A stretch of 64,000 bases of DNA from an uncultured Gammaproteobacteria bacterium (GCA_947259705.1 CAMYNL010000013.1:75073-139072); one strand, 5' to 3'; shown: positions 1 through 14,550, numbered from the stretch's first letter. The notes: generated by a model from the sequence alone, not told the origin. Program-made: numbers and translations.

Positions 1-71
1 TTCCGTCGGGCGATAGAATGTAGTAGATGCCACCCCTCCGATGAACCGCCAAATTCTGAAAGGAGTTCACC

Positions 72-495
72 ATGAAAGCGTGGCAAAGCCAGTCTCATCG
101 GAGATGGTACTGCAAATATCACGTTGTGTTTGCACCGAAGTGTCAGAAGCGTTCGATTTCGGTGCGCCACGGCGGAATATTGGGAATTTGCCGAGGGCTT
201 AATGCGGTCAGCACGGAGTAGCGCTCGTGGAAGGACAAGAGATGTCGGATCATATCCGCCGACGCTTGAGTATTCCACCGCCGTATAACGTGGCGCGCAC
301 GGTAGGGTTCATGAAGGGGAAGTCGGCCGCTCGGATCCACCGGCAGTATCCACATCGAGAGTATCAGTCTACGGGGTTCCATTTCGGGGCCAGGGGTCAC
401 TGCGTCAGCACGATCGGGCTGGACGAGCAGTTTGTTCGGCAGTAGATCAGAAACTTGAGGAACAGGAGTGGGCACCAGGAGAGTTTGCGGTTTGA
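72..495 (+). mobile_element. tnpA: IS200/IS605-family Y1 (HUH) transposase gene, degraded
   Basis: ATG at 72 behind an AAAGGAG RBS gives MKAWQSQSHRRWYCKYHVVFAPK, a typical IS200 TnpA N-terminus. The frame hits TAG at 219-221. Homology continues in another frame (ORF 227-445: SDHIRRRLSIPPPYNVARTVGFMKGKSAARI...FGARGHCVSTIGLDEQFVRQ). TAG at 443-445 sits where the conserved Tyr of ..IR.YIRNQ.. is expected. Confidence 0.75.
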
Positions 496-510
496 GGGCC
501 TTTAGGCCCT
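495..510 (+). other. Perfect 6-bp stem / 4-nt loop hairpin (AGGGCC-ttta-GGCCCT) at the 3' end of the IS200 remnant
   Basis: Inverted repeat read directly from the sequence. IS200/IS605 elements end in structured hairpins, so this may be the element end or a terminator. Confidence 0.35.
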
Positions 511-641
511 TTCCTGGGCGGACTGCGCCGCCGGGGGGGTCTCAAATCACCCTCTCTGCGGGTGGTAGGCAATTCAGCCGCTTAGCGAATAAGGTGGCAG
601 CGACCTTCCGCTTCGGTACGAGCAGTGCGGGAGTTTTCGCC

Positions 642-900
642 CTACATCCGGCTGGTCGTGGCAATCAGGTTGCCGATCTTGGCCGCGAAGTAATTTGTGG
701 TAGTCCGTCCCGATCTATATCCCAGCAGGTCCCGGCGGTCCTCGAACGACACACCCACCGCCATCGATCGGCGGCCGGAGGTGTGCTTGAGGTGATACAC
801 CCTCACCGGCGGCAGCGCCGCCCGCTTCCCTAGCGACCGCGTTTTGCCTGGGTTGAGGCACCCGCAGAGGCCGCGGATTGCCTCCTTCACCTGGCATCCG
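642..900 (-). pseudogene. Tyrosine recombinase (phage-type integrase) C-terminal stub
   Basis: The minus-strand ORF ends ...LPPVRVYHLKHTSGRRSMAVGVSFEDRRDLLGYRSGRTTTNYFAAK. This matches the R-HxLRH...LGH...Y catalytic tail with the histidines replaced by Tyr. The N-terminal ~250 aa are missing because the GntR gene begins at 1008. Confidence 0.45.
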
Positions 901-1007
901 TGTCTGGTCGTTTGTCCGGGTGCGGCGCTGGAAGTGCGCGCCGCCGGCACGGGAGAACTGGACCATGTAGTCAGGCGATCGAGGTCATCCGGCGCGTTCG
1001 GCAAGCA

Positions 1008-1700
1008 TTACGCGGTTGCTGACTCCGCTACGGTCTCGTGCTTGGGCGCGGCGTTGATCATCGATACTAGATCTGCGAAACGTTCTCCCTGGATCAGCAC
1101 ATGGTTCTTCAGGAGTAATTCCGCGTTCTGTTCGTTGCCACCAAGGATCGCGTCTACGATTGCTTTGTGTTCTTCAAAGGACGATCGCATCCGTTGTGGC
1201 ACACGCAGCTGGAGGCGCCGGTACGGCTTTAGTCGGTTGCGTAGTTGTTGGGCCTGGTCGGCCAAGAAACGGTTATAGGAGAGTTCGTAGATAACACCGT
1301 GAAACTGTTCGTTCTCATAGTAATAATCATCGGAGTTGCCGGCCTCGGCGGCGGCGCGGCAGGTGTCCAGTTTTTCGAGTAAGCGGGTGCGCTGTTCCGC
1401 CGCTATGCGCCGTGCTCCGAGTCGGCCGCACATGCCCTCGAGTTCGGCCATGACCTCAAACATTTCGATGATCTCAGGCAGGCCGAGATTGGCCACGAAA
1501 GTGCCGCGCCGCGGAATCGTCTCCACCAGACCGGTGGCGGCGAGCTGCCGGAGCGCCTCGCGGATCGGGGTCCGAGATACCGCGAACCGCTGACTGAGGC
1601 GGACCTCGTCGAGGCGCTCGCCCTGCGCGATACGCCCGTTGACGATGTCGTCCTCCAGCGCATCGCGCAGGTGTTGGATGCGGTGTTGTGGCTTGTTCAC
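1008..1700 (-). CDS. GntR-family transcriptional regulator (FadR/FCD subfamily), MatR-like by context
   Basis: Winged-HTH signature RLSQRFAVSRTPIREALRQLAATGLVETIPRRGTFV followed by a helical FCD-type C-terminal domain. Transcribed divergently from the TRAP/malonyl-CoA decarboxylase operon. Confidence 0.9.
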   Translation of the reverse strand: MNKPQHRIQHLRDALEDDIVNGRIAQGERLDEVRLSQRFAVSRTPIREALRQLAATGLVETIPRRGTFVANLGLPEIIEMFEVMAELEGMCGRLGARRIAAEQRTRLLEKLDTCRAAAEAGNSDDYYYENEQFHGVIYELSYNRFLADQAQQLRNRLKPYRRLQLRVPQRMRSSFEEHKAIVDAILGGNEQNAELLLKNHVLIQGERFADLVSMINAAPKHETVAESATA

Positions 1701-1769
1701 GGTCTATGACGATGTTTGGTCTGCAGCTGCTGGTCGCGATCCCGTGACTCGATCATGTGAATACCACCA

Positions 1770-1825
1770 TTGACACATTGTATCCTGAACGAGTATTCTT
1801 GTATACAATTTATAATAACTTGTAT
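1770..1825 (+). promoter_or_regulatory. Candidate sigma70 promoter plus GntR-type operator array
   Basis: TTGACA at 1770-1775 and TATTCT about 18 bp downstream. The perfect palindrome TTGTATACAA lies at 1799-1808. TTGTAT half-sites occur at 1778, 1799 and 1820, exactly 21 bp apart. AGGAG RBS precedes the ATG at 1861. Confidence 0.4.
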
Positions 1826-1860
1826 CTTACCCCCATAGGCACACCATAGGAGAATCATTC

Positions 1861-2856
1861 ATGAAATCATGCCGCGTTGCGTCTTCGTTATGTGTACTTG
1901 CTTCGCTCCTCGTGGGCGGATCGGCGTTCGCCGCCGACGTTAAGTTGAAGGCCTCCCACCAGTGGAACAATAAGGACGTGCGCCACCAGATGGTACAGCT
2001 CATCGCCGACGAGGTGGCTAAAGCCGGCGTCGGACTGGAGGTGCAGGTTTATCCTTCCAAGTCCCTGTACAAACCGAAAGAGCAGTGGACGCCTCTGACC
2101 CGCGGTCAGCTTGCGATCTCCGCGTTTCCGCTGGCGTATGCCGCCAGCCGTCATCCCGAATTCGACGCCACTTTGATGCCCGGCCTGGTCAAGAACCACG
2201 ATCACGCCGCCAAACTCAACGATTCGGAGTTCATGCAAGACATCAAGAAAATCATCAATGACGCCGGGGTGATGGTACTTTCCGATACCTGGCTGGCCGG
2301 GGGGTTTTCATCCAAGAAGAACTGCATTCTCGAGCCCGATGACGTCAAGGGACAGGTAACGCGAGCCGCGGGCAAAGCTTTCGAACAGATGATGGCCGGC
2401 GCCGGCGCATCCATCGCCTCGATGCCGTCATCGGAAATATATACGGCGATGCAGACCGGCGTGCTGGACGCCGCCAACACCAGTTCTGGCAGCTTTGTGT
2501 CGTATCGCATCTACGAGCAGGTCAAGTGCCTGACTGCTCCCGGTGAGCACGCCCTATGGTTCATGTACGAACCGATCTTGATGTCCAAGAAGGTTTTTGA
2601 CGGCCTGACCAAAGAACAACAGGATGCCTTGCTGGCGGCCGGACAGAAAGCCGAGGAGTTCTTCGACGCCGAAGCGCGTAAGCTCGACAAGACTTTGGAA
2701 GAGACCTTTAAAAAGGCCGGCGTCGAGGTCGTAACCATGAATGCCGAGCAAGCGGCGAAATGGCGTGAAATTGCCAAAACCACTTCTTACGCCGAGTTCA
2801 TCAAAAAAGTGCCAAGCGGCAAATCCCTCATCGATAAGGCGCTCGCCGCCCAGTAA
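1861..2856 (+). CDS. dctP: TRAP transporter substrate-binding protein (DctP family)
   Basis: Signal peptide MKSCRVASSLCVLASLLVGGSAFA, about 330 aa. It is followed by DctQ- and DctM-type permeases. Confidence 0.9.
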   Translation: MKSCRVASSLCVLASLLVGGSAFAADVKLKASHQWNNKDVRHQMVQLIADEVAKAGVGLEVQVYPSKSLYKPKEQWTPLTRGQLAISAFPLAYAASRHPEFDATLMPGLVKNHDHAAKLNDSEFMQDIKKIINDAGVMVLSDTWLAGGFSSKKNCILEPDDVKGQVTRAAGKAFEQMMAGAGASIASMPSSEIYTAMQTGVLDAANTSSGSFVSYRIYEQVKCLTAPGEHALWFMYEPILMSKKVFDGLTKEQQDALLAAGQKAEEFFDAEARKLDKTLEETFKKAGVEVVTMNAEQAAKWREIAKTTSYAEFIKKVPSGKSLIDKALAAQ

Positions 2857-2939
2857 GCTGCATGCAGCCGGGACAGCGGCCCCCATCTTGCCGGGGCCGC
2901 CGTCGGGCGCTCGAATCGAACCCGTTGACGGGAGGCCTT

Positions 2940-3455
2940 GTGCACGGAATTGTCATGTTCATCAACCAGTTGTCTCGGTTATGCGGGGTTATCGCGACGG
3001 CGCTGATTGCGATCTCGATCCTGATCGTGTGTCAGATGGTCATTTTACGCTACGGGTTTGCCGCCTCGACCACGTGGCAAACCGATGTAGTGATCTTTGG
3101 GCTGGTGGGCGCGACCATGATCGGCAGTCCCTATCTACTTCACAGAGGGGCGCACGTCGGGGTCGATCTCATTACCAATATGTTTTCGACGAAGATCCAG
3201 CGCTGGTTCAAAGTGATTTCTGGAGTTGCGATCTTCCTCGTCGGCGCCTCGTTAGCATGGACCGGTACGGAGCTCACTTGGGAGGCTTACGAGGGTAACT
3301 GGCTGTCAGAAACCGTCGCCGAAATTCCGCTATGGATCGCATACTTTGCCATGCCATTCGGTTTTGGCCTGCTCGCTCTACAGGCAGTTGCCGATGTGAT
3401 TGCCGTACTCATGGGTTTCGATGACGCGTTACCCGAAGGGTCGTCCTCCCACTAA
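2940..3455 (+). CDS. dctQ: TRAP transporter small permease (DctQ family)
   Basis: Four-TM hydrophobic ~170 aa protein between dctP and dctM. GGGAGG RBS lies 4 nt before GTG 2940; ATG 2955 is an alternative start. Confidence 0.8.
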   Translation: MHGIVMFINQLSRLCGVIATALIAISILIVCQMVILRYGFAASTTWQTDVVIFGLVGATMIGSPYLLHRGAHVGVDLITNMFSTKIQRWFKVISGVAIFLVGASLAWTGTELTWEAYEGNWLSETVAEIPLWIAYFAMPFGFGLLALQAVADVIAVLMGFDDALPEGSSSH

Positions 3456-3485
3456 TTCCCTTTACGACTGCCTAGAACTCCACTC

Positions 3486-4799
3486 ATGTCACCGATAACG
3501 ATTGGTATCCTGATCGGAGTTACCATGCTTCTGTTTTTGGCATTAGGTATTCCGGTTGCCTTCACCCTGGCTCTGGTCGCGCTGATCTTCTTGATTACTT
3601 TTGAGGGTGTGGGAGTATTCGGCGTGCTGGCCGAGACGTTTTTCTCGGGCCTTGCCGAATTCACCCTGTTATCGATCCCAATGTTCGTGGTTATGGGTAC
3701 GGCGGTGGCGGCGTCGCCCGCCGGCAGGGATTTGTACGAGGCGCTGGACCGCTGGCTAAACCGCGTACCCGGTGGATTGATCATTTCGAATATCGGCGCC
3801 TGCTCGATCTTTGCCGCATTGTCGGGTTCTTCCCCGGCGACTTGTGCGGCGATCGGTAAGATGGGCATTCCCGAAATGCAAAAACGCGGTTATCCGGATG
3901 GTCTCGCCACCGGCGCCATCGCCGCGGGCGGTACCCTGGGGATCCTGATTCCGCCGTCGATCACCATGATTGTTTACGGTATTGCCACCGAGACCTCCAT
4001 TGGTCGCCTGTTTATCGCCGGCCTGCTCCCAGGTCTGATGCTGACCGTGCTGTTCATGACCTGGTCTCTGTATACCAGTTGGCGCAGCGGCCACAGTTTG
4101 TCTGGAAGGAACGACATTACCTGGCAACATCGCTTCGCAGCATTGCCCCGTGTACTGCCGTTTCTACTGATAATCGCCGGGGTGTTGTGGGCCTTGTACG
4201 GTGGCGTTGCCACCCCGTCCGAGGCCGCCGGAGTTGGGGCGTTCTTGTGCCTGTTAATGGTCGCGGTGGTCTACCGCATGTGGCGCCCGAAACAACTCTG
4301 GAAAATCATTTCCAGCTCGATGAGCGAGAGCGTGATGATCCTTATGATCATCGGTGCAGCGGCATTGTTCTCTTACGCGCTCTCGTCTCTGTATGTCACT
4401 CAGACTATCGCTCAGTCGATTGCCGACGCCGGTCTCAACAGGTGGGTATTGATGGGCACGGTCAACGTATTTCTCCTGGTGGCAGGATTTTTTCTGCCAC
4501 CGGTGGCGGTGATCTTAATGACTGCCCCGATCTTATTGCCGATCATCACTGACGCGGGTTTTGACCCTTACTGGTTCGCGGTCGTACTCACTATCAATAT
4601 GGAAATCGGACTGATTACCCCTCCGGTGGGACTAAACCTCTATGTTATCAACGGTATTGTCCCCAATGTGTCGCTCGCAACGATCTTAAAGGGCGCGCTG
4701 CCATTTGTGGTGTGCATGGTCATCGGCATCGTCATCCTGTGCCTGTTTCCGCAGATTGCAACGTGGTTGCCGGATTATTTGATGGGTCGGGCAGTATGA
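3486..4799 (+). CDS. dctM: TRAP transporter large permease (DctM family)
   Basis: 437 aa polytopic protein with typical DctM blocks (SGSSPATCAAIGKMGIPEM, ITPPVGLNLYV). Its stop overlaps the next start in an ATGA. Confidence 0.92.
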   Translation: MSPITIGILIGVTMLLFLALGIPVAFTLALVALIFLITFEGVGVFGVLAETFFSGLAEFTLLSIPMFVVMGTAVAASPAGRDLYEALDRWLNRVPGGLIISNIGACSIFAALSGSSPATCAAIGKMGIPEMQKRGYPDGLATGAIAAGGTLGILIPPSITMIVYGIATETSIGRLFIAGLLPGLMLTVLFMTWSLYTSWRSGHSLSGRNDITWQHRFAALPRVLPFLLIIAGVLWALYGGVATPSEAAGVGAFLCLLMVAVVYRMWRPKQLWKIISSSMSESVMILMIIGAAALFSYALSSLYVTQTIAQSIADAGLNRWVLMGTVNVFLLVAGFFLPPVAVILMTAPILLPIITDAGFDPYWFAVVLTINMEIGLITPPVGLNLYVINGIVPNVSLATILKGALPFVVCMVIGIVILCLFPQIATWLPDYLMGRAV

Positions 4800-6145
4800 G
4801 CCGCGCGTTTCTGCATGACCTTCTGACTTCGATCGGGCAGAAAAGCCGCGAGCTGGTGCATGGCGGACCCGTGGCGCTCACCGACGGGGTGGAGATCGCG
4901 GACCTGGCAGAAACAATTCTCTCACAGCGTGGCGAGGCTTCCGGCATCGCACTGGCCGAAATGATCCTGGCGCGCTTCCGATCGATGGACCCCACCCAGA
5001 AACTCGAATTCTTCAAAGTGCTGACCGAGCATTTCGGTGCGGAGCAAGGTCGGCTGCAGGCGGCGGCCACTGACTACCTGGCGGCACCCAGTGACCAGTC
5101 TGCGATTGTTCTGCACGACGCCGCTGAGCCCCGGCGCCAGGAACTCATTCGCCGCCTCAATCTACCTGATGGAGGCACCGGGGCCCTGGTAGCGATGCGC
5201 TCGGACTTGCTTGATCTCATGTCCGACCATCCGGAACTTGCCGCGGTGGATCATGATTTCGATCATCTTCTCAGTTCCTGGTTCAATCGCGGATTTCTGG
5301 TATTGAAAAGAATCGAATGGGACACCCCCGCGTCTGTGTTGGAGAAAATCATCGAGTATGAGGCTGTACATGCGATCCAGAGCTGGGACGATCTGCGTCG
5401 TCGGATCGAGCCTCTGGATCGGCGCTGCTATGCATTCTTTCATCCCGCCTTGAGAGATGAGCCATTGATCTTCGTAGAAGTTGCGCTGGAGCGGGAAATC
5501 CCCGGCGCGATCGCGCCGTTGTTGGCTGACGACCGCGTCCCCACTCAATCCGATCAAATGACGACAGCGGTTTTCTATTCGATTTCCAATTGTCAGCGCG
5601 GCTTACGCGGCGTTTCGTTTGGAAATTTTCTGATCAAACAAGTGGTTCAAGAGTTGGCCCGCGACCTTCCGCGGCTCAAGAACTACGTCACGTTGTCCCC
5701 GGTAGTGGGCCTCTTGCACTGGGTCAGACAGCTAGGCCGCGATGGTCCCCTGCAGGACAATGAGCGATATCAGCGGATATCGAAGCTGCTCGAGCATACC
5801 GGCTGGCACCAGAACGAATCCATCGCCGCGGAACTGCAAGAGATGTTATTACCCACGGCGGCTGTGTACTTCCTGAATGCAAAGCGGGGCGACGGGATGC
5901 CTGTCGATGCAGTAGCGCGCTTCCATCTAGGTAACGGCGCGCGTTTGGAACGCATCAACTGGCTGGGTGACTTGTCGGACGTCGGACTGAACCAGGCCGG
6001 AGGTTTGATGGTCAATTACCTATATAAACTGACCGACATCGAAAAGAACCACGAGGCCTTCGTCAACAATCGCCGGATCGCTGTTTCGAACGAAATCCGC
6101 AAGATGGCGAAGAAATGGCAGCAGGAATTCGGTTTCGATAAATAG
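4796..6145 (+). CDS. Malonyl-CoA decarboxylase (MCD/MatA family), lower-GC copy
   Basis: Conserved MCD blocks [52 protein letters not shown] and [28 protein letters not shown] 4796 overlaps the dctM stop. Confidence 0.9.
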
Positions 6146-6171
6146 ATAACGGGCGGTTTCGGCGTGACGAA

Positions 6172-7401
6172 ATGGATAAGACGAGACCGCTTGACGGACT
6201 TATTGTAATTGATCTGAGCCGCGTTCTGGCCGGTCCGTATGCAACCATGCTGTTGGCTGACCTCGGGGCTCGGGTGATCAAGGTGGAAATGCCGGAGTTC
6301 GGTGATGACGGGCGTTATTTCGGTCCGTACTTCGATGGGAAATCCGCGTAGTTTTCCTCGCTGAATCGCGGCAAGCGAAGTATTGCTTTGAACCTGAAGC
6401 AGACGACTGATCGCGGTATTTTTGAACAGCTGGTGTGTAAGGGGGATGTTCTAGTCGAAAACTTTCGGCCTGGAACGATGGACAAATTGGGATACGGCTG
6501 GGAGGCCCTGCAGGCGCTCAACGAAAGATTGATCTATGCTGCGGTGTCCGGTTTTGGCCATACCGGCCCGTATCGACAGCGTCCTGCTTATGACATGGTC
6601 GTGCAGGCTATGGGCGGCATAATCAGCGTGACCGGTCAGGAAGACAGCGCGGCCCCGACGCGGGTCGGCACTTCGGTGGGTGACATCACTACCGGTTTGT
6701 TCGGTGCAACCGGTATTCTTGCTGCATTACACGACCGTCAGCAAACAGGGGCGGGCATGATGATCGATGCCGGTATGTTCGATTGCCAGGTAGCGATACT
6801 CGAAAATGCCGTGTCGAGATATCTGGCAGATGGCGAGATTCCCAAGCCGCTCGGGGCGCGCCATCCATCGATTACACCGTTCGAGGCGTTCCGCACACAA
6901 GACGATTATGTCATCGTCGCCGCCGGAAATAACGCGTTATTCGAAAAATTTTGTGTTGCGCTCAAGCGCGATGACTTGTTGCAAGCTCCCGAGTTCTCCA
7001 GTAACGATCTGCGCACCAAAAACCATGCGCGTTTAAAGCAGGAGCTGGAGGCGACGTTGGCCCAAAAACAGGCCGCCGAGTGGCTCACCATTATTGCCGA
7101 TGCAGGCGTACCATGTGGACCGATCAACAACATCGAGCAAGTAGTTAATGATGAGCACATTGCCGCACGCAATATGATAATCAATACCAAGGGCTCGAAC
7201 GCGGGTGGGGTGCGTATGGCCGGTAATCCGATCAAGCTTTCCGCCTACGAGGATCCTGGCGAACGGCGGGCGGCGCCTGATCTTGATGCAGACAGGGACT
7301 GGATCATCAATTCCTTCTCTTGCCGGAGCGGAAAACGTGACACCATAGCAATGATAGGCCGGGGCCCTGGGTTACGCAGGTATACCCGCCGCCGCAACTA
7401 A
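6172..7401 (+). pseudogene. Class III (CaiB/BaiF-type) CoA-transferase interrupted by an in-frame TAG
   Basis: [39 protein letters not shown]...FDGKSA-TAG(6349-6351)-FSSLNRGKRSIALNLK...VLVENFRPGTMDKLGYGW. The reading frame stays the same across the stop. The TAG sits where family members have Tyr (..S.YF..NR.K.S). Confidence 0.8.
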
Positions 7402-7655
7402 AGTGTCTCCCCGCGATATGACGTGAGTCTTCCCAGGCCCATGACGTCACCTGCGAGCGACCATCAGGAAATAATCGCAACGACAAAGCCGAGTATCTCC
7501 CGTGGCATATGCACCGACGTCCTGGCCTGATTTGTATGGCCGCGAAAAAGCAAGGCTTGCATTGGAATCTGCGCCAAGAGTTCCCGTTTCAGAACCTGCC
7601 CCGGTTAGATGGACACCTTAAGAATGTCGTAGGCATCTACGGCAGGAGCTGTGCG

Positions 7656-7872
7656 ATGAATAGAAGAAGGGGCTATAAGCGATACCGAGCGGAATTCAAT
7701 CGTGGGGTTTGAAGCAAGCCAGCGAAGATGGGATGACAGTCGAGGTGGTCCCTGAGTAGCTGGGGATCAGTGGGCGTCAACTGGCTCGTCGGGGGATGGG
7801 TTGAGGTTATTGGGGGATAATGCGTTTTTAGGCAAGGGTCAAACCCGCAGCGATGAAGTGACGCGGCTGTAG
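7656..7872 (+). mobile_element. IS3-family orfA (HTH transposase subunit) 5' stub, multiply broken
   Basis: AGGAG RBS then MNRRRGYKRYRAEFNRGV-stop. LGISGRQLARR and DNAFLGKGQTRSDEVTRL-stop follow in shifted frames. These match the IS3/IS911 OrfA pattern (RR.YS.EFK..AV, LGIS...L..W, AFPG.G....E..RL). The stub ends at the junction with the dctM remnant. Confidence 0.55.
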
Positions 7873-9051
7873 CGGGGGCTGGCGGATACGCTGTTTGGCG
7901 GGCTGGATGAATTAGCCCTGCTTTTCCTGCCCATGTTCCTACTGATGAGGCGGCTGTGGCCGCTTCGCGTGCCGGCAGCGATCTCTACGAGGCCCCGGAC
8001 CGTTGGCTTTACCGGGTGTGCCGGGTGGTTTGCTCATCTGCAACGTAGGTGCCTGCGGCGTAGTCGCTGGGCTCACGGGATCATCACCCGCGACCTGTGC
8101 CGCGGTAGTGAAGGATGGGCACATTGGAGATGCGCATGCGCGGCTATCCGGCGAGCCTGGCCACCGGCGCCATCGCTGCCGTCGGCACCCTGGGTATCCT
8201 GATCCCATCCGGTATCACCATGAATTTCGTTGGTATCGCGACAGAGACGTCGATCGGACGCCTGTTCATCGCCGGGCTACTGCCAGGCATCGTGCTGACG
8301 GGGTTGTTCATGGCGTGGGCATGGATCTATGTCTCCAGTCGCGGGGTTCGGTTCACCGAGGATAACAAGAGTTTCAGCCTGTGGGACAAGTTGATCATCC
8401 TGCCCAAGGTGATCCCGTTTCTCAGTATCATCGGGACTGTGCTGCGGACTTTGTATGGCAGCGTGGCTACGCCCTCCGCGGCAGGTGGTGTGGGGGCGCT
8501 GCTCTGCATCGTGCTGGAGATGGCGATCTACCAGGTATGGCGGCCACGCGCTGTGTGGGAGATCATAAGTACGGCTATGCGCGAATCGGTCATGCTGTTG
8601 CTCATCAATGGCATGGCCGCAATATCCAGTTACACGATGTTGACCCTTTACATCACCCAGGGAATTGCAGGGTGGATCGCGGTGATGGAGGTGACTCGCT
8701 GGTTACTGTTATTTTTCGTGAACATCTTTACTTCTGGTCGCGGGCTTTCTTCTGCCCGTGGCGGCGGTAATCCTGATGACCACCCCGACGCTGCTTCCTG
8801 TTATTACCCATGTCGGATTTGACCCGAGCTGGTTCGGCGTGTTATTCACGGTCAATATGGAGATTGGCCTCATCACCCCGCCCGTGGGCCTTGGTCTCTA
8901 TGTGATCAATGGCATCACGCCGAACGTCAAGATCCCGACCATGTTCTGGGGCGCATCGCCGTTCACGTTGTGCATGGTGCTGGGTATTTTTCTATTGTGC
9001 CTTTTTCCGGGCATCGCGACCTGGTTGCCCGATTATCTGATGGGGGAGTGA
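7873..9051 (+). pseudogene. dctM: DctM-family TRAP large permease, 5'-truncated with at least four frame changes (high-GC resident copy)
   Basis: Pieces in different frames align with the intact DctM at 3486-4799. LADTLFGGLDELALLFLPMF matches LAETFFSGLAEFTLLSIPMF. VPGGLLICNVGACGVVAGLTGSSPATCAA matches VPGGLIISNIGACSIFAALSGSSPATCAA. RGYPASLATGAIAAVGTLGILIP, IATETSIGRLFIAGLLPG and ITPPVGLGLYVINGI also align. About the first 45 codons and any dctPQ are absent. Confidence 0.85.
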
Positions 9052-9056
9052 TCTAG

Positions 9057-10454
9057 GTGCGGCAGCTTTGGCTGGACCGGCTGCTCGACGCGGTCGCCGA
9101 CCGTGGCCGCGACCTGCTGCACCCTCACGGCAGTCGAGGCTCCCGGCAGTCCGTCGACGAGCTGTGCCGGCGGCTATTGGCGGGTCATGGCGAGGCCTCT
9201 GCGATCGCCCTGGCGCGGGACATCCTGCGGCGCTACCAGGGCATGGACCACGGGACGCGCGCCGAATTCTTCCATACCCTGTTGCGGGACTTCGGCCCCG
9301 ACCCGCAACAGATCAGGGAATGCGCCGACCGCTATCTGGCGTCGCCGAACGACGGTCACGCGCTGATGCGTCTTGTCCAGGTGGTAGAGCCGCCGCGGCA
9401 GGAACTGTTCCGGCGCCTGAACATGGCGCCTCGTGGCACTGCGAGCCTGGTTGCCATGCGAGCGGATCTGCTGCGCCTGTTGGGCGACCATCCGGTCTTG
9501 CTCGCGGTGGATGCCGATCTTCGGCACTTGCTGGCATCGTGGTTCAATCGGGGATTCCTGCGCCTGGAGCGAATCGATTGGCGAACCCCGGCCCAGGTTC
9601 TGGAGAAATTGATCCAGTACGAATCCGTCCACGAGATCAAGGGCTGGAACGACCTGCGCCGCCGGCTTGCGCCAGATCGGCGCTGCTTTGCGTTTTTTCA
9701 TCCCGCACTGCCGGACGAACCACTGATCTTCGTCGAGGTGGCCCTGAGCCGGGAAGTGGCTGCAGAGATCGGCCCGCTCATCTCACAGGATGCGCCAGTG
9801 CAGGACGTGCATGACACTGACACCGCCGTCTTCTATTCCATCAACAATGCCCAGGAGGGGCTGCGGGGGATCTCTTTCGGCAATTTCCTGATCAAGCAGG
9901 TGCTGACCGAGCTGCGGACCGAACTTCCGCACCTGAGGACCTTCGTCACCCTGTCTCCCATGCCCAGATTTACGCAGACCATCGAGGAGATGCTGTCCGG
10001 TAGATCGGACCTGGGCGTGAATCGCGCACAGCTCGATCAGGTACTGCAGGATGACATGCGCGATGTAATGGTTCCCGACCGCGACGGACCCCTTGCATCA
10101 CTGGCGGTGCTGGCGGAAAAGATGGATCGTCCGGATCCCAGGCTGTATCCCCCTATGCGCCATGTCGCGCTGGCCTACCTGACGCTGATGCGCTGCGGCG
10201 GCGACATCTGTGATCCCGTGGCGGCTTTCCACCTTGCCAATGGGGCATCTTTGGAGTGCATCAACCCGTTCGCGGATGTTTCCGTTCATGGCCGCGCCCA
10301 GAGTTTCGGTTGCATGGTCAACTACCGCTACGAGCCGGACAGGTTGGAGGAAAATCACGAGGCCTACATCAATGAGAGCCGGATCGTCATGTCGAAGACT
10401 GTGGCCAGGGATCTAGACGGGCTCAAGGACCGGATCGGCTCGCGGACCGGCTGA
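9057..10454 (+). CDS. Malonyl-CoA decarboxylase (MCD family), high-GC copy, apparently intact
   Basis: Same MCD blocks as the first copy ([78 protein letters not shown]). Identity to the 4796-6145 copy is only about half by eye. Confidence 0.9.
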   Translation: MRQLWLDRLLDAVADRGRDLLHPHGSRGSRQSVDELCRRLLAGHGEASAIALARDILRRYQGMDHGTRAEFFHTLLRDFGPDPQQIRECADRYLASPNDGHALMRLVQVVEPPRQELFRRLNMAPRGTASLVAMRADLLRLLGDHPVLLAVDADLRHLLASWFNRGFLRLERIDWRTPAQVLEKLIQYESVHEIKGWNDLRRRLAPDRRCFAFFHPALPDEPLIFVEVALSREVAAEIGPLISQDAPVQDVHDTDTAVFYSINNAQEGLRGISFGNFLIKQVLTELRTELPHLRTFVTLSPMPRFTQTIEEMLSGRSDLGVNRAQLDQVLQDDMRDVMVPDRDGPLASLAVLAEKMDRPDPRLYPPMRHVALAYLTLMRCGGDICDPVAAFHLANGASLECINPFADVSVHGRAQSFGCMVNYRYEPDRLEENHEAYINESRIVMSKTVARDLDGLKDRIGSRTG

Positions 10455-10496
10455 CATACTGCACAGACCGCCGGGGCAGGAAGCGTCGCCCGCGGT

Positions 10497-10838
10497 TCAG
10501 TCGCGAGCGGGCCCGGGGGGGGGCACGGGAATGGGGAACGGCGTAACCTTACCCGCATTCTCGCCGGTGGCCAGGATCTTGTTTTGGCCCTCCTTGTCGA
10601 CCTCATCGATGCGCACCACGCTGTGCAGGGGTATGTAGGTACGCTTGACGCCCGCGAATTGCGCCTTGAGCTGTTCCTCCGACGGGTCAACCACGAGTTT
10701 CGAGCGTTCACCGAATATGATGTCGGCCACTTCGATGAATGCATACATACTGGCCTGAGTTACTTCGCGGGCATACAGTTCATAGATGTTGCCCTGATTA
10801 TGGAAAATCACCCGGTAGATGTTTTTTTTCGTGCTCAT
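10497..10838 (-). CDS. DUF1820 family protein
   Basis: IYRVIFHNQGNIYELYAREVTQASMYAFIEVADIIFGERSKLVVDPSEEQLKAQFAGVKRTYIPLHSVVRIDEV matches my memory of the DUF1820 family pattern. Confidence 0.75.
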   Translation of the reverse strand: MSTKKNIYRVIFHNQGNIYELYAREVTQASMYAFIEVADIIFGERSKLVVDPSEEQLKAQFAGVKRTYIPLHSVVRIDEVDKEGQNKILATGENAGKVTPFPIPVPPPGPARD

Positions 10839-10841
10839 GAA

Positions 10842-11210
10842 TCAACAAGTCAAGTGCAAGGCCGCTGCGACACTGGCATCCCGTTGCTGCAGCCGGTTAA
10901 ATTCAGCAACGGCTTCCGTGGTGCGCAGGCAGCGAATCTCGATACCCCGTGAAGACAGTTCCAGCTCCGTCGCCTGAGGTATCTGCATGCGGCCGTGCAA
11001 GCCGGTGCCCACCACGAGTATGTCGGGTGATTCCTGCAATATCTCGTGCAGATCCTCCACACAGAGGCTGTGTCCGGTCCGGCGCCTCCATTGATCACGC
11101 ACCCCGCGGCAGGTGATTAGCAGGTCTGAACAATAGCTGCGGCCGTTGATCGTCACCCGGCCAAAGCTGTAGTTGGAAATATACGTAGTTGCGCAAGTAG
11201 AAACGGACAT
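10842..11210 (-). CDS. Mth938-like (DUF498) domain protein
   Basis: FGRVTINGRSY..DLLI....W.....H.L..EDL..IL...PDILVVGTG....QIP......L...GIEI....T.EAV..FN.L......AAALHLTC, including the family-typical C-terminal H.TC. Confidence 0.7.
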   Translation of the reverse strand: MSVSTCATTYISNYSFGRVTINGRSYCSDLLITCRGVRDQWRRRTGHSLCVEDLHEILQESPDILVVGTGLHGRMQIPQATELELSSRGIEIRCLRTTEAVAEFNRLQQRDASVAAALHLTC

Positions 11211-11299
11211 ATTGGCTATTCTAAGAGCAAATGAGATCCCAATGAAGGAAAATAAAGGTCCCGCTAGAGAAGCGCCGGTCGATTTGGTATGTTGCCGCG

Positions 11300-13006
11300 A
11301 TGACCGGTGATGCCTTGTCGCAGCTTACTGATTTCCTGGTCCGGCTGCGTGCGGGTCACCGTTCAGTTGCCGGTTCTGACGATGACGACGGCCCATCCGC
11401 CGTCTATACACTATCGCTGTGCGTGGCAGCGCTCGAAGACCTGGTGTTTTATGCGTCTAGTTCCCGGCACCGCGTTCCCCAGGTCGTCGTCATGGGGCCC
11501 ACCCAGGTCGGCAAAAGCACGCTGGTGAATCTGCTGCTGGAGCGTGATGCCGCCCGGCCCAGTCCGCTCGCGGGATTTACGCGCAGCCTCCAGGGTTTTG
11601 CTGTCAATGTGGCGGACACCAGCATGGACGCCCTGCGAACATTTATGTCCAAGGGGGGCGACGTCGACGGAGAGGTGTCAGTGGCAGACTTCACCGGCGG
11701 GCGCGGTGGACCGGTTCTGGTCTGGGACACGCCCGATTTCGACTCCCATGCGTCGCGCGAATACCGGACCCTGCTGCCCCGGGTGGCCGGCGTGGCGGAC
11801 GTGCTGCTGTTGGTGTTGAGCAAGGAGAAGTATGCCGACCTGTCGGTGTGGACCATGCTCGACCCTATCAGGATGCTGCAAACGCCACTGGTAGTGTGCC
11901 TGAACAAGACCGACCAGCCCGAGCAACTGTTGGCCCCCTTGACAAAGCACATCGTGGAGTCGGGGTTCGACCCCGGGCAGGTGGCGATATATAGCTTGCC
12001 CTATGTAGGTAGCGCCCAGCTCGAAGAATTGAATGCACTGTCGGCCGCCGCCGACCTGCGCCGCACGGTCATGGAGCACGTCGTCCCGCGTGATCGAACC
12101 GCCCGCGTCGCCGGCGCGAAGCGGCTCATGGAAAAGTATTGGAATGTCTGGATCGCCCCTGTTCGGGAGGAACTCGCGGGCCTGGACGCATGGCAACGGG
12201 ACATCGATGAGGTCTTGGCCGGGGCGCTGGCCGTTTACCGCGAGCAGTATCTCGACCATGCGCGGTACGAGAACACCTTCAACCGCGCCGTGTTGCGGTT
12301 ACTGGAGTTGCTGGAGATTCCGGGCATCGCCGGTGCCATGACGCAGCTGCGGCGGGTCCTGACCTGGCCGCTGCGGCGCCTGCGGGTAGCCGGCGTTGAC
12401 CGCCAGCCCTGGTCCGGCGAAGACGCGGAGACCGAGGTACTGACGGAGCTGTTCGACCATTTATGGCTGGTCCTCGAGCGGCGGTTGAATGACCGTATCG
12501 GCGATGATCATGCCGGTCGTTGGTGTCGGGCCCTGCGCGATGCGCTACCGCCGACCGCGGAGATAAGGCGTGATTACTTATCGGCGGTCGGCGGCTACCA
12601 GAAATCGTTTCAGCCGGAGGTGGAACAGGCCGGCGAGCGACTGTATGACCGCTTGCAGGAGAGCCCGCTGACGCTGAATACGCTGCGCGCGGGACGGGTC
12701 GGCGCTGATGCCGCGGGCGTGGTTGTCGCCCTGAAGACCGGCACAGTGGGGATCACCGAGGCGGTATTGACGCCGGCCATGCTCTCGCTGACGTCGGTGC
12801 TGACCGAGAGCGCCGTGGGCAGGTACGTGGACAGCGTCCGCGATGATCTCAGGCAACGCCAGTACTTGCAGGTCGAGAAGCTCCTGGACGGTCTGCTGCG
12901 GGCGAAGCTGCTGGCGGTTCCGGAAAACATGGATGAGCGGGGTTTGTTCAACATCGACGCCGAAGCGCTCACAGCCGCCGACGCTGCGCGCAGGGCGCTG
13001 ACGTGA
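11300..13006 (+). CDS. Dynamin-like / HSR1-type GTPase, partner 1 (568 aa)
   Basis: P-loop GPTQVGKST, switch-II-like VLVWDTPDFDS and NKTD (G4). A ~360 aa Arg/Leu/Glu-rich helical region follows, then a hydrophobic patch AAGVVVALKTGTVGITEAVLTPAMLSLTSVL. Its stop overlaps the GTG of the next gene. Confidence 0.8.
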   Translation: MTGDALSQLTDFLVRLRAGHRSVAGSDDDDGPSAVYTLSLCVAALEDLVFYASSSRHRVPQVVVMGPTQVGKSTLVNLLLERDAARPSPLAGFTRSLQGFAVNVADTSMDALRTFMSKGGDVDGEVSVADFTGGRGGPVLVWDTPDFDSHASREYRTLLPRVAGVADVLLLVLSKEKYADLSVWTMLDPIRMLQTPLVVCLNKTDQPEQLLAPLTKHIVESGFDPGQVAIYSLPYVGSAQLEELNALSAAADLRRTVMEHVVPRDRTARVAGAKRLMEKYWNVWIAPVREELAGLDAWQRDIDEVLAGALAVYREQYLDHARYENTFNRAVLRLLELLEIPGIAGAMTQLRRVLTWPLRRLRVAGVDRQPWSGEDAETEVLTELFDHLWLVLERRLNDRIGDDHAGRWCRALRDALPPTAEIRRDYLSAVGGYQKSFQPEVEQAGERLYDRLQESPLTLNTLRAGRVGADAAGVVVALKTGTVGITEAVLTPAMLSLTSVLTESAVGRYVDSVRDDLRQRQYLQVEKLLDGLLRAKLLAVPENMDERGLFNIDAEALTAADAARRALT

Positions 13007-14550
13007 CTGCGGAACTGGAACCGGCCTTCGCCAGGCTTCATGAATGGGCGCGTCAGGCGCAGCAGGGCGGATGGCTGAGCAGGGCGGACGTGCAGGAGAT
13101 GGGGCGTATAGAACGCCAGAACGCGGACGAGTTGTTTGCCGCCGGCAAGCCGCGGCCGTTACTGGTGGGGCTGTTCGGCGGCACCGGGGTGGGCAAGAGC
13201 AGTCTGCTCAACCGCCTGGCCGGGGAGAACATCGCCCGGGTGGGCGCGGAGCGGCCGACGTCGCGGGAAGTCACGCTCTATCTGCACCAGGACCATGCCC
13301 TCGAATCATTGCCCCCGGAGTTTCCGCTGGCCCGTACCCGGATCCAGTATCATCACGACCGGCAACGCCGTGACATCGCCTGGATCGACATGCCGGACAT
13401 CGACAGCACGCACAGGGCGAACCGTGAACTTGTGTTCGCCTGGCTGCCGTACATCGACTGGCTGATCTACGTAGTGAGCCCGGAACGGTATCGCGACGAC
13501 GCCGGTTGGAAGGTGCTGCGCGAGCGTGGACACAGGCACGAATGGCTGTTTGTCATCAACCACTGGGACACCGCCGAGCCGGAGCAGTATGACGCCTTCG
13601 TTTCCGACCTGGCCGGCGCCGGTATCGACCGGCCCAGGGTGTTGCGTACCAGCTGCACGATCGACTGTGAAGAGGACGAGTTTGCGCGGCTGGAAGAACT
13701 CATACGAAACGCCATCGAACAACATGGTCTGGAGGAACTCAAGCGACTCGGTATCCTGGCGAAACTGCGCGACCTGGCACAGCTGAGCGATGATTTCCGC
13801 TCGCGCCTGGGCAGCGAGGAGGCGTGGCAGACGGTTTGCGGGCGAATCCGGGAACGCTCGGGCAATATCCTGTCTCGCCTGCGGCAGTCGCTGGCCTGGT
13901 CGTTTGCGCTCATCTCCGGCCGGTTCCCGGAGCCCCGCCGCGGCTGGCGCGACAAGGGCGGTATGCGGCAGCGCAATATCCCGGCCGCGGATGAGCTGCG
14001 CGCGGCGATCTGGGGGCCGCAGGCGGATAGCTATGTTGCCGATGTGGTCAACGAGGCGGTGGTGGCCGCCGCGGAAAACGGCGTCCCGGTGGAGCCAGTG
14101 GAACGGGCAGTGGGGGTGATGGCCCGGCAGGTGCCCGGGTTGGTCACCGAGATTTCGTTGTCCCGCCTGCGGCAGGCGCTGCTGAAACCGGGACCTGCCT
14201 GGCAGCGGGCCCTGTTCCGGCTGACCGGGGCTCTGCGCAGGGTATTGCCCGCGGCGGCTGCTGCATGGGCGGTATATCACCTGGTAACCCGTTTTCACGC
14301 GGGAACCACGGGGCGGGGCGAGTTGCTGGGGCTGGACTTCGCGGTCCACAGTTTCGTGCTCATCTCCTGCGCCTGGTTGCTGCCCTACCTGATGCACCGC
14401 CTGTCCAAACCGTCACTGCGCAAGGCTGCGCGACGCGGCCTGGAACAGGGCGCCGCCGCTGCCATTCAGCAGTCTGAACAGGAGTTGGCCTCAGTACTGG
14501 AGAAGCTGGGAGAGGAGCGCCGGCAGCTGCTGCTGCAACTCAAGGATTGA
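13003..14550 (+). CDS. Dynamin-like GTPase, partner 2 (515 aa) with C-terminal hydrophobic hairpin
   Basis: P-loop GGTGVGKSS, IAWIDMPDIDS and NHWD (degenerate G4). Helical stalk, then predicted membrane hairpin AAAAWAVYHLV...FAVHSFVLISCAWLLPYLM and a terminal coiled segment. Paralogous to partner 1 (shared D.PD.DS ... V.S.E.Y.D ... N..D spacing). Confidence 0.8.
   Translation: MTAELEPAFARLHEWARQAQQGGWLSRADVQEMGRIERQNADELFAAGKPRPLLVGLFGGTGVGKSSLLNRLAGENIARVGAERPTSREVTLYLHQDHALESLPPEFPLARTRIQYHHDRQRRDIAWIDMPDIDSTHRANRELVFAWLPYIDWLIYVVSPERYRDDAGWKVLRERGHRHEWLFVINHWDTAEPEQYDAFVSDLAGAGIDRPRVLRTSCTIDCEEDEFARLEELIRNAIEQHGLEELKRLGILAKLRDLAQLSDDFRSRLGSEEAWQTVCGRIRERSGNILSRLRQSLAWSFALISGRFPEPRRGWRDKGGMRQRNIPAADELRAAIWGPQADSYVADVVNEAVVAAAENGVPVEPVERAVGVMARQVPGLVTEISLSRLRQALLKPGPAWQRALFRLTGALRRVLPAAAAAWAVYHLVTRFHAGTTGRGELLGLDFAVHSFVLISCAWLLPYLMHRLSKPSLRKAARRGLEQGAAAAIQQSEQELASVLEKLGEERRQLLLQLKD

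Follow-up and report, generated by a model that had tools for sequence, protein, structure and literature searches.

A malonate cassette, probably acquired laterally, beside the remnant of a native malonate operon in a marine Arenicellales bacterium

In a 64,000-nucleotide stretch of the genome of a marine Arenicellales bacterium (G000:C13:75073-139072, here called the window; assembly of 4.05 Mb in 106 contigs), two gene modules for malonate use lie next to each other. Cassette 1 (gntR | dctPQM-mcd1-CoA-transferase, 1008-7401) encodes a regulator, a tripartite ATP-independent periplasmic (TRAP) transporter, a malonyl-CoA decarboxylase (MCD) and a CoA-transferase, and the native module is represented in the window by dctM2-mcd2 (7879-10454). 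For comparison we used a family sample of 20 genomes, with G001 (an Arenicellales metagenome-assembled genome (MAG) chromosome, OZ244194.1) and G002 (same family, other genus) grouped with G000 by their family kinship label, together with the loci L040, L042, L043 and L044, of which L040, L042 and L043 (the last from JGI 3300045261) are metagenome contigs. Based on the synteny with G002, the discordant identities of L040, the non-sister trees of the two copies, a shift in composition and the remnants of mobile elements, we conclude that cassette 1 was most probably acquired laterally and displaced the native malonate operon in situ, and that the locus was frozen as a mosaic.

Genes and features of the two modules

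All genes named for cassette 1 in the original prediction, which had been made from the DNA sequence of the window, were recovered by Pfam (GntR/FCD, DctP, DctQ, DctM, MCD_N+MCD and CoA_transf_3). The minus-strand gntR1 (1008-1700) encodes a FadR/FCD-type GntR regulator (Pfam GntR + FCD) that is 82% identical to its counterpart in L042, whereas its identity to the GntR encoded at the native-type locus of G002 is only 49%. The divergent control region between gntR1 and dctP1 (1701-1860) contains TTGTAT at 1778, 1799 and 1820 and a palindrome, TTGTATACAA, at 1799. The arrangement TTGAC(A/T)..ATTGTAT followed by (A/T)TTG(T/C)ATACAAT is conserved 5' of dctP in G001, L042 and the window, with the exact palindrome in the window and G001 and the variant TTGCATACAA in L042, and neither the motif nor the palindrome was found near matB or mcd2. 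There are two exact copies of TTGTATACAA in the genome. The second (C7:67606) is located between a family III CoA-transferase paralogue, 43% identical to the transferase of L040, and a GntR-family gene (flanking genes at C7:61399-62607 and C7:70652-71434), and this locus may be a second regulon of the cassette-1 kind.

The plus-strand genes that follow encode an intact DctP/Q/M TRAP system, the malonate specificity of which we read only from the conserved linkage to matB and mcd. The solute-binding subunit dctP1 (1861-2856; Pfam DctP, NCBIfam TRAP_S1) is MatP-like, sharing 90% of its residues with L042 and 66-73% with DctP proteins from native-type loci. The small permease dctQ1 (2862-3455; Pfam DctQ) is about 40% identical to native-type DctQ; its true start is probably near 2955, and the gene call in the sister strain L043 has 166 amino acids. 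The large permease dctM1 (3486-4799) is intact, with a full-length Pfam DctM match and 93% identity to L042. Malonyl-CoA decarboxylase is encoded by mcd1 (4796-6145; Pfam MCD_N + MCD, PF17408 and PF05292, far over the cut-offs), and its product is 86% identical to P0002, 75% to P0003, 66-68% to G001 and 55-59% to Bradyrhizobium-type proteins.

The last gene of cassette 1 (6172-7401, plus strand; Pfam CoA_transf_3, 315 bits) encodes a family III CoA-transferase of the YfdE-like type. Its reading frame starts at 6172 and is broken by an in-frame TAG at 6349-6351 (codon 60), so that the unit, contrary to the original claim, is not complete. The Pfam hit (6388-7401, positions 67-365) falls on the open reading frame after the stop, and the full reading aligns end to end with E. 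coli YfdE (4HL6) at E = 8e-110. The Asp of VGTSVGD in the cassette protein aligns with an Asp of YfdE within the shared motif VGTS(V/L)(G/A)D. We take this Asp to be the catalytic residue of YfdE. On the NCBIfam model the transferase scores 413, which is below the equivalog cut-off of 522. The TAG codon aligns with a Tyr that is found in G001, L040, L043 and E. coli YfdE. Since codon 60 is TAT in L043 and the Tyr is conserved elsewhere, the TAG of the window is a one-base nonsense change.

L043 has a different lesion in the same gene. A 162-bp segment of the window that includes the 3' end of the CoA-transferase gene (7307-7468) is missing from L043, as the sole gap in the alignment (at L043:8413), and the conserved C-terminus of the protein, which the window and L040 retain, is thereby removed. 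The two strains are 99.5% identical. Between them the CoA-transferase gene differs by 3 synonymous and 7 non-synonymous changes, compared with 14 and 3 in the other five cassette genes (Fisher p = 0.013), and selection on the imported transferase seems to have relaxed in this MatB-bearing host.

The native module begins outside the window. On the minus strand just upstream, matB (C13:73365-74879) scores 783 bits on NF005702 (malonyl-CoA synthase, cut-off 558) and adjoins rimO, and because of this position we count it as part of the native module. Within the window, dctM2 (7879-9051, plus strand) is a pseudogene of the native TRAP large permease that aligns with DctM1 and with the DctM of relatives from about codon 48. 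About 47 N-terminal codons are missing, frame changes are located near 7948, 8018, 8110 and 8730, in-frame stops are present, and Pfam finds a DctM fragment at 8115-8822; the 5' truncation and at least four frame changes had been foreseen in the original prediction. The loss of the native dctP, dctQ and dctM 5' end, also part of it, agrees with our searches: 7250-8050 gave no sign of another dctP, dctQ or 5' part of dctM, and no remnants of native dctP, dctQ or gntR turned up in 1-1100 or 7250-8050.

What remains of dctM2 has lost its constraint. Four outgroups share the same residue at 195 positions; 32 of these carry an amino-acid change unique to dctM2, and 0 carry one unique to the intact DctM of L044. 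In a three-taxon relative-rate count, the unique changes at codon positions 1, 2 and 3 are 15/194, 18/217 and 16/112 in dctM2 and 2, 0 and 26 in L044, which gives 33 and 2, respectively, at positions 1 and 2 taken together. This near-uniform substitution over the codon positions (about 8% at positions 1 and 2) indicates that dctM2 evolves neutrally. The pairwise dN/dS of dctM2 and L044 is 0.10, a value that is uninformative for pseudogene status.

The adjoining mcd2 (9057-10454, plus strand) is the intact second MCD gene that had been predicted, with MCD_N and MCD domains (PF17408 and PF05292) far over the cut-offs. Its product is 77% identical to P0122 and 54-59% identical to proteins of family relatives, Chromatiaceae MAGs and Thiosocius. 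No rate acceleration was seen in mcd2 (5 unique changes compared with 5), thus the gene is still constrained. Between the CoA-transferase gene (7401) and mcd2 (9057) no convincing terminator was found, the counts being no higher than in shuffled sequence, and it is possible that mcd2 is transcribed by read-through from the cassette.

Remnants of mobile elements lie at both edges of cassette 1. On the left there is a pseudogene of an IS200/IS605-type Y1 transposase, tnpA (70-445, plus strand; Pfam Y1_Tnp, 42-45 bits, cut-off 23), with a stop and a frame shift; the whole-genome scan places the hit at C13:75248-75514 (176-442 of the window) with one TAA inside, and the pseudogene is 65% identical in nucleotides to an intact copy on C12. 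It is followed by a C-terminal stub of a tyrosine recombinase/integrase (645-848, minus strand, 68 amino acids) that was found by tblastn against plasmids, with annotated tyrosine-type recombinases matching at E = 3e-5 and an unannotated site on a Legionella plasmid at E = 1e-14. Pfam gave no domain hit on the stub, and the genome's own integrases match it weakly.

At the right edge, the homology to L040 ends near 7344, and the left end and orfA of an IS3-family element remain at 7591-7884 (plus strand), recognized by nucleotide similarity and tblastn and spread over three frames with two stops. The orfA part (7656-7884) is matched by the intact IS3 OrfA of the family genome G007 at E = 2.4e-19 (tblastn), and the nucleotide identity of the remnant is 84% to G007:C104 and 67% to a full IS3 in G006, which bears out the IS3 stub predicted at the junction. 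The stub was found only by a DNA search of the family genomes; it was undetected by Pfam and by a whole-genome HTH_Tnp_1 scan, and the genome's own OrfAs did not match it. No IS3 orfB, right end or further copy was found in the assembly, and the IS3 is a remnant and not a transposition-capable member.

Probable lateral origin of cassette 1 and the resident module

The window from 1050 to 7293 is colinear with G001 at 73% nucleotide identity, and the proteins of the two cassettes are identical at 82% (GntR), 86% (DctP), 75% (DctQ), 91% (DctM), 66% (MCD) and 79% (CoA-transferase). The G001 cassette has glycogen-metabolism genes on one side and genes for a hybrid histidine kinase and a DUF302 protein on the other, with no mobile elements around it and a flat GC profile, and the G000 orthologues of those glycogen and kinase genes are on other contigs with about 50-56% identity. 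Closer copies of the cassette were found in L040 (MCD 86%, CoA-transferase 90% and DctM 94% identical to the window) and L042 (MCD 75%, DctM 93%). The downstream context of L040 is that of G001 (kinase 64% and DUF302 83% identical), and its flanks reach only 38-55% identity to G000; even so, the genes of its cassette resemble those of the window more than those of G001. The DctM1 identity to G001 also exceeds all of the 100 sampled best hits between G000 and G001 (median 62%). Of the 20 family genomes in the sample, only G000 and G001 had the cassette as a whole. The source of the cassette was apparently a related lineage of the same family and not a distant taxon.

The composition of cassette 1 points in the same direction with a smaller contrast than was originally claimed. 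Its GC content is 56.3% (51-64% in 400-nucleotide windows) and not 45-52%, and that of 7873-10454 is 61.0% and not 63-75%, with 63.6% in the rest of the window and 61.1% in the genome. As predicted, the profile of GC and codon usage is not flat, but the difference between the modules is much smaller than stated. The cassette GC is in the 8th percentile of 2201 genome windows of 6.4 kb (mean 61.5%, standard deviation 3.4%). The GC content at third codon positions (GC3) of the six cassette genes is in the 8th-35th percentile, all below the median, and that of matB, rimO, mcd2, the dctM2 fragments and the downstream GTPase and serA genes is in the 45th-76th percentile; the exception is the small DUF498 gene, native by synteny, in the 20th percentile. 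Overall, the GC3 and codon usage of the native module are typical of the genome. L040, at 55% GC, is like the cassette. The strongest deviation in the assembly, by a wide margin, is elsewhere: about 20 kb at 46-49% GC (G000:C4:86000-108000), probably a genomic island.

The flanks of the locus tell which module is resident. G002 has the order rimO | gntR-matB-dctP-dctQ-dctM-mcd ... DUF498, which matches the flanks of the window on both sides, with rimO on one side of the native module and DUF498/DUF1820 on the other, and 7892-9905 of the window is colinear with G002 at 70% nucleotide identity. Homologues of matB (55-59% identity) are present in 13 of the 20 family genomes and absent from G001, and in one genus a single contig carries matB and, about 10 kb away, dctPQM-mcd. 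The synteny with G002 and the spread of matB in the family thus identify the dctM2-mcd2 module as the resident type, and in the comparison with related genomes that had been suggested, G002, the one such relative outside the genus, has the probable ancestral arrangement between the same flanks. In another observation, one genus (G003, G006, G012, G013b and G015; loci L031, L033 and L035) has a separate MCD subclade, about 50% identical to MCD2; no TRAP genes were found beside these MCD genes where the neighbourhood was mapped (G003, G006 and G013b), and no matB in the genomes of that genus.

Several points weigh against a lateral origin of cassette 1 and displacement in place. At the 8th percentile, the shift in composition is modest. 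The 66-68% identity of MCD1 to G001 is ordinary for this pair of genomes. With a dS of 0.35-0.67 from the window, L040 does not qualify as the direct donor, and no date attaches to the transfer. The presence of the cassette within the same family leaves room for a retained ancestral second locus. The cassette is not flanked by att-like repeats, direct or inverted, and no tRNA lies at its edges (no tRNA or tmRNA gene was found in 1-12000, and no Rfam family at the cassette edges); of the marks of an integrase-borne genomic island there is the 68-amino-acid integrase stub only, with no tRNA/att target and no flanking direct repeats. Compared with G002, matB is inverted, no remnant of a native gntR was found, and the ancestral layout is taken from a single other genus. 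In addition, the TAG of the window may reflect a minority allele or an error in the assembly, and malonate as the substrate of the transporter and pathway is read solely from gene context.

Among the alternatives, the one that survives best is that a MatB-type and a CoA-transferase-type locus were both ancestral in the family and were joined by differential loss and intragenomic rearrangement. This would agree with the occurrence of both module types within one family, with the modest GC shift and with the ordinary identity of MCD1 to G001. However, we consider it improbable, because the flanks of L040 follow G001 while its cassette follows the window, the DctM1 identity is above that of all sampled orthologues, the whole cassette is confined to two of the 20 family genomes, and mobile-element remnants bound the cassette in the window and not in G001.

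Slightly less probable is the reversed polarity, in which cassette 1 was the resident and the higher-GC matB...dctM2-mcd2 module came in and then decayed. Cassette 1 is indeed the working copy and the native module the broken one, and the IS remnants between the modules do not alone tell which side moved. But the module with dctM2-mcd2 and both of its flanks are syntenic with G002, its GC3 and codon usage are genome-typical while all six cassette genes are below the median, and loci of the matB type prevail in the family.

The junction, its age and the phylogeny of the copies

The homology of the IS3 remnant to OrfA runs up to residue 78 of 99 (...RELA) and gives way at precisely that point to the homology to DctM2 (...LADTLFGG). 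The deletion thus ends within IS3, and it follows that dctP2, dctQ2 and the 5' end of dctM2 were lost after the IS had inserted and not as a direct result of the landing of the cassette. The original prediction that a cassette landed on the native locus and partly deleted it thus holds for an acquired cassette at the native site and fails for the landing as the direct cause of the deletion.

L043 has the same gene order, junctions and dctM2 indels as the window, with 70 scattered single-nucleotide polymorphisms besides its one gap. Since this independent contig shares the architecture, the locus is not an assembly artefact. A chimeric join of the loci of two populations at the homologous dctM or mcd genes, with the frame shifts as sequencing errors, could be imagined for an assembly of 106 contigs, in which homologous genes can seed such joins; this is very improbable, because L043 comes from another metagenome, the copies are only about 50-70% identical in nucleotides and too divergent for a mis-join, and dctM2 has its 32 lineage-specific substitutions. 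The state common to the two strains, together with the neutral divergence of dctM2 (about 8%, many times the 0.5% divergence of the strains), also shows that the wreck is old, and the locus, contrary to what had been proposed, is not a replacement caught in the act.

MCD1 and MCD2 are 47% identical, close to the half estimated by eye. An alignment query was needed to gather MCD relatives in contigs, as a single-protein scan returned almost none. In the resulting tree, the nearest neighbours of MCD1 are P0002, P0003 and G001, followed by alphaproteobacterial MCDs of the Bradyrhizobium type, and MCD2 groups with P0122 and gammaproteobacterial proteins (Chromatiaceae MAGs, Thiosocius and family relatives), with an SH-aLRT value of 100 for each clade. 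Forcing the two MCDs of the window to be sisters costs 382 log-likelihood units and is rejected by the approximately unbiased (AU) test (p = 3e-5). In the DctM tree, conceptual DctM2 is sister to the intact DctM of L044 in the native clade and DctM1 groups with G001 and L042 (SH-aLRT 99), and the AU test gives p of about 1e-63 against sisterhood. The two copies thus have different nearest neighbours and are not sister paralogues, as the check suggested with the original prediction was meant to decide, and a recent tandem duplication, which it had discounted, is contradicted by both trees. An old tandem duplication of one dctPQM-mcd operon that diverged in place would account for the adjacent copies and the same dctM-mcd order, but with sisterhood rejected for both proteins and closer relatives of each copy elsewhere (86% and 77% identity) it is the least probable of the alternatives.

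Two further observations were made. The DctM of G018 (L038) falls in neither the native nor the cassette clade, matches the dctM2 fragment over only 55% of its own length and has a stop-to-stop frame of 634 amino acids; it may be a third transporter lineage, a fusion or a mis-assembly. Directly downstream of the malonate locus (11300-14550) are two overlapping large GTPase genes (MMR_HSR1; faint Dynamin_N), which are conserved in the sister strain.

Proposed history, likely hybrid pathway and known systems

Cassette 1 as a lateral acquisition would imply the following order of events. The ancestral locus would have been rimO | (gntR)-matB-dctP-dctQ-dctM-mcd, as in G002, with a MatB-type pathway of TRAP malonate uptake, ATP-dependent activation by malonyl-CoA synthetase and decarboxylation to acetyl-CoA. 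A module that brought its own operator and promoter would then have come from a relative of G001 with lower GC, in connection with mobile DNA, of which the integrase stub, IS200 and IS3 would be the remains, and would have been placed between matB and the native transporter genes. A later deletion with endpoints in IS3 orfA and at about codon 48 of dctM2 would have removed the rest of IS3, native dctP, dctQ and the dctM 5' end, and the leftover dctM2 would have drifted neutrally. The xenologous cassette beside a wrecked native copy, as originally predicted, is on the whole well supported by synteny, the trees and the discordance of L040.

The working pathway is likely a hybrid of the acquired transporter and MCD1 with the native MatB and MCD2. 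Malonate would induce the cassette promoter via GntR1 and be imported by the acquired TRAP system; native MatB would make malonyl-CoA, and MCD1 and/or MCD2 would yield acetyl-CoA. The imported CoA-transferase would provide an ATP-independent activation (acetyl-CoA + malonate to malonyl-CoA + acetate), would be redundant beside MatB and would be in the course of independent loss in the two strains. With native matB kept and the incoming CoA-transferase decaying, the outcome is a mosaic and not a clean replacement. It appears that displacement need not be all-or-nothing, as the recipient keeps the ATP-dependent MatB and discards the donor CoA-transferase. The locus is an unusually legible intermediate of in-place operon displacement, in which the cassette, the scars of mobile DNA, the dead permease and the kept synthetase and decarboxylase are seen together, and a second strain corroborates it.

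The closest solved relative of the cassette transferase over its full length is E. coli YfdE, an acetyl-CoA:oxalate CoA-transferase (PDB 4HL6) with a short dicarboxylate as the acceptor and acetyl-CoA as the donor. Unlike YfdE, the cassette transferase falls below the equivalog cut-off, has an MCD as its genomic partner and carries a premature TAG in the window allele. The MCD partner suggests malonate and not oxalate as the acceptor. We tentatively propose, as a possibility somewhat short of even, that cassette 1 encodes an uncharacterised ATP-independent malonate pathway in which a YfdE-type acetyl-CoA:malonate CoA-transferase acts with MCD and acetyl-CoA is regenerated in the cycle. If so, the pathway would provide a soluble counterpart of the Mdc malonate decarboxylase built from two enzymes and an alternative to the MatB route, as in G001, which has the cassette and no matB; and the loss of the transferase where both routes share a genome would be a natural experiment on which activation chemistry is favoured by selection. 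A family III CoA-transferase (36-37% identical) also adjoins MCD in some Hyphomicrobiales, in a Pseudolabrys MAG (L123, where dctPQM is present too) and a Rhodoplanes MAG (L130). At the 7 Bradyrhizobium/alphaproteobacterial MCD loci that were checked, out of 80 found, there was no TRAP or transferase gene within 9 kb. The conserved cassette of MCD, family III CoA-transferase and TRAP genes in Arenicellales deserves a flag in annotation.

Both modules have counterparts among known malonate systems. According to PMC5237526, Sinorhizobium meliloti matPQMAB combines a TRAP malonate transporter with MatA/MatB and a GntR-type regulator, GtrA (Chen et al. 2010), and Rhizobium leguminosarum matRABC has a GntR-type regulator and an MCD for malonate catabolism (An and Kim 1998). 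From its description, the native module is of the matPQMAB type, with matB first and mcd last as a difference in order; unlike in S. meliloti, its transporter in the window is deleted or dead. Cassette 1 is like matRABC in its divergently transcribed GntR regulator and its MCD, and unlike it in having a TRAP transporter in place of MatC and a family III CoA-transferase in place of MatB.

As a whole, the locus is a clear and unsurprising example of a known phenomenon, xenologous displacement in situ that gives a mosaic operon. The concept was reportedly set out by Omelchenko, Makarova, Wolf, Rogozin and Koonin in Genome Biol in 2003, and the term xenologous gene displacement is in use, for example, in PMC9425974 and PMC4481853. 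As in such displacement, homologues of another phylogenetic affinity take the place of the resident genes at their own locus while the flanking synteny is kept, and the mosaic here consists of native matB and mcd2 with foreign gntR1, dctPQM1 and mcd1. Unlike in the usual case, both copies are still visible, with the dead permease, the intact decarboxylase and the mobile scars, so that an intermediate is observed, and the source is a related lineage rather than a distant phylum.

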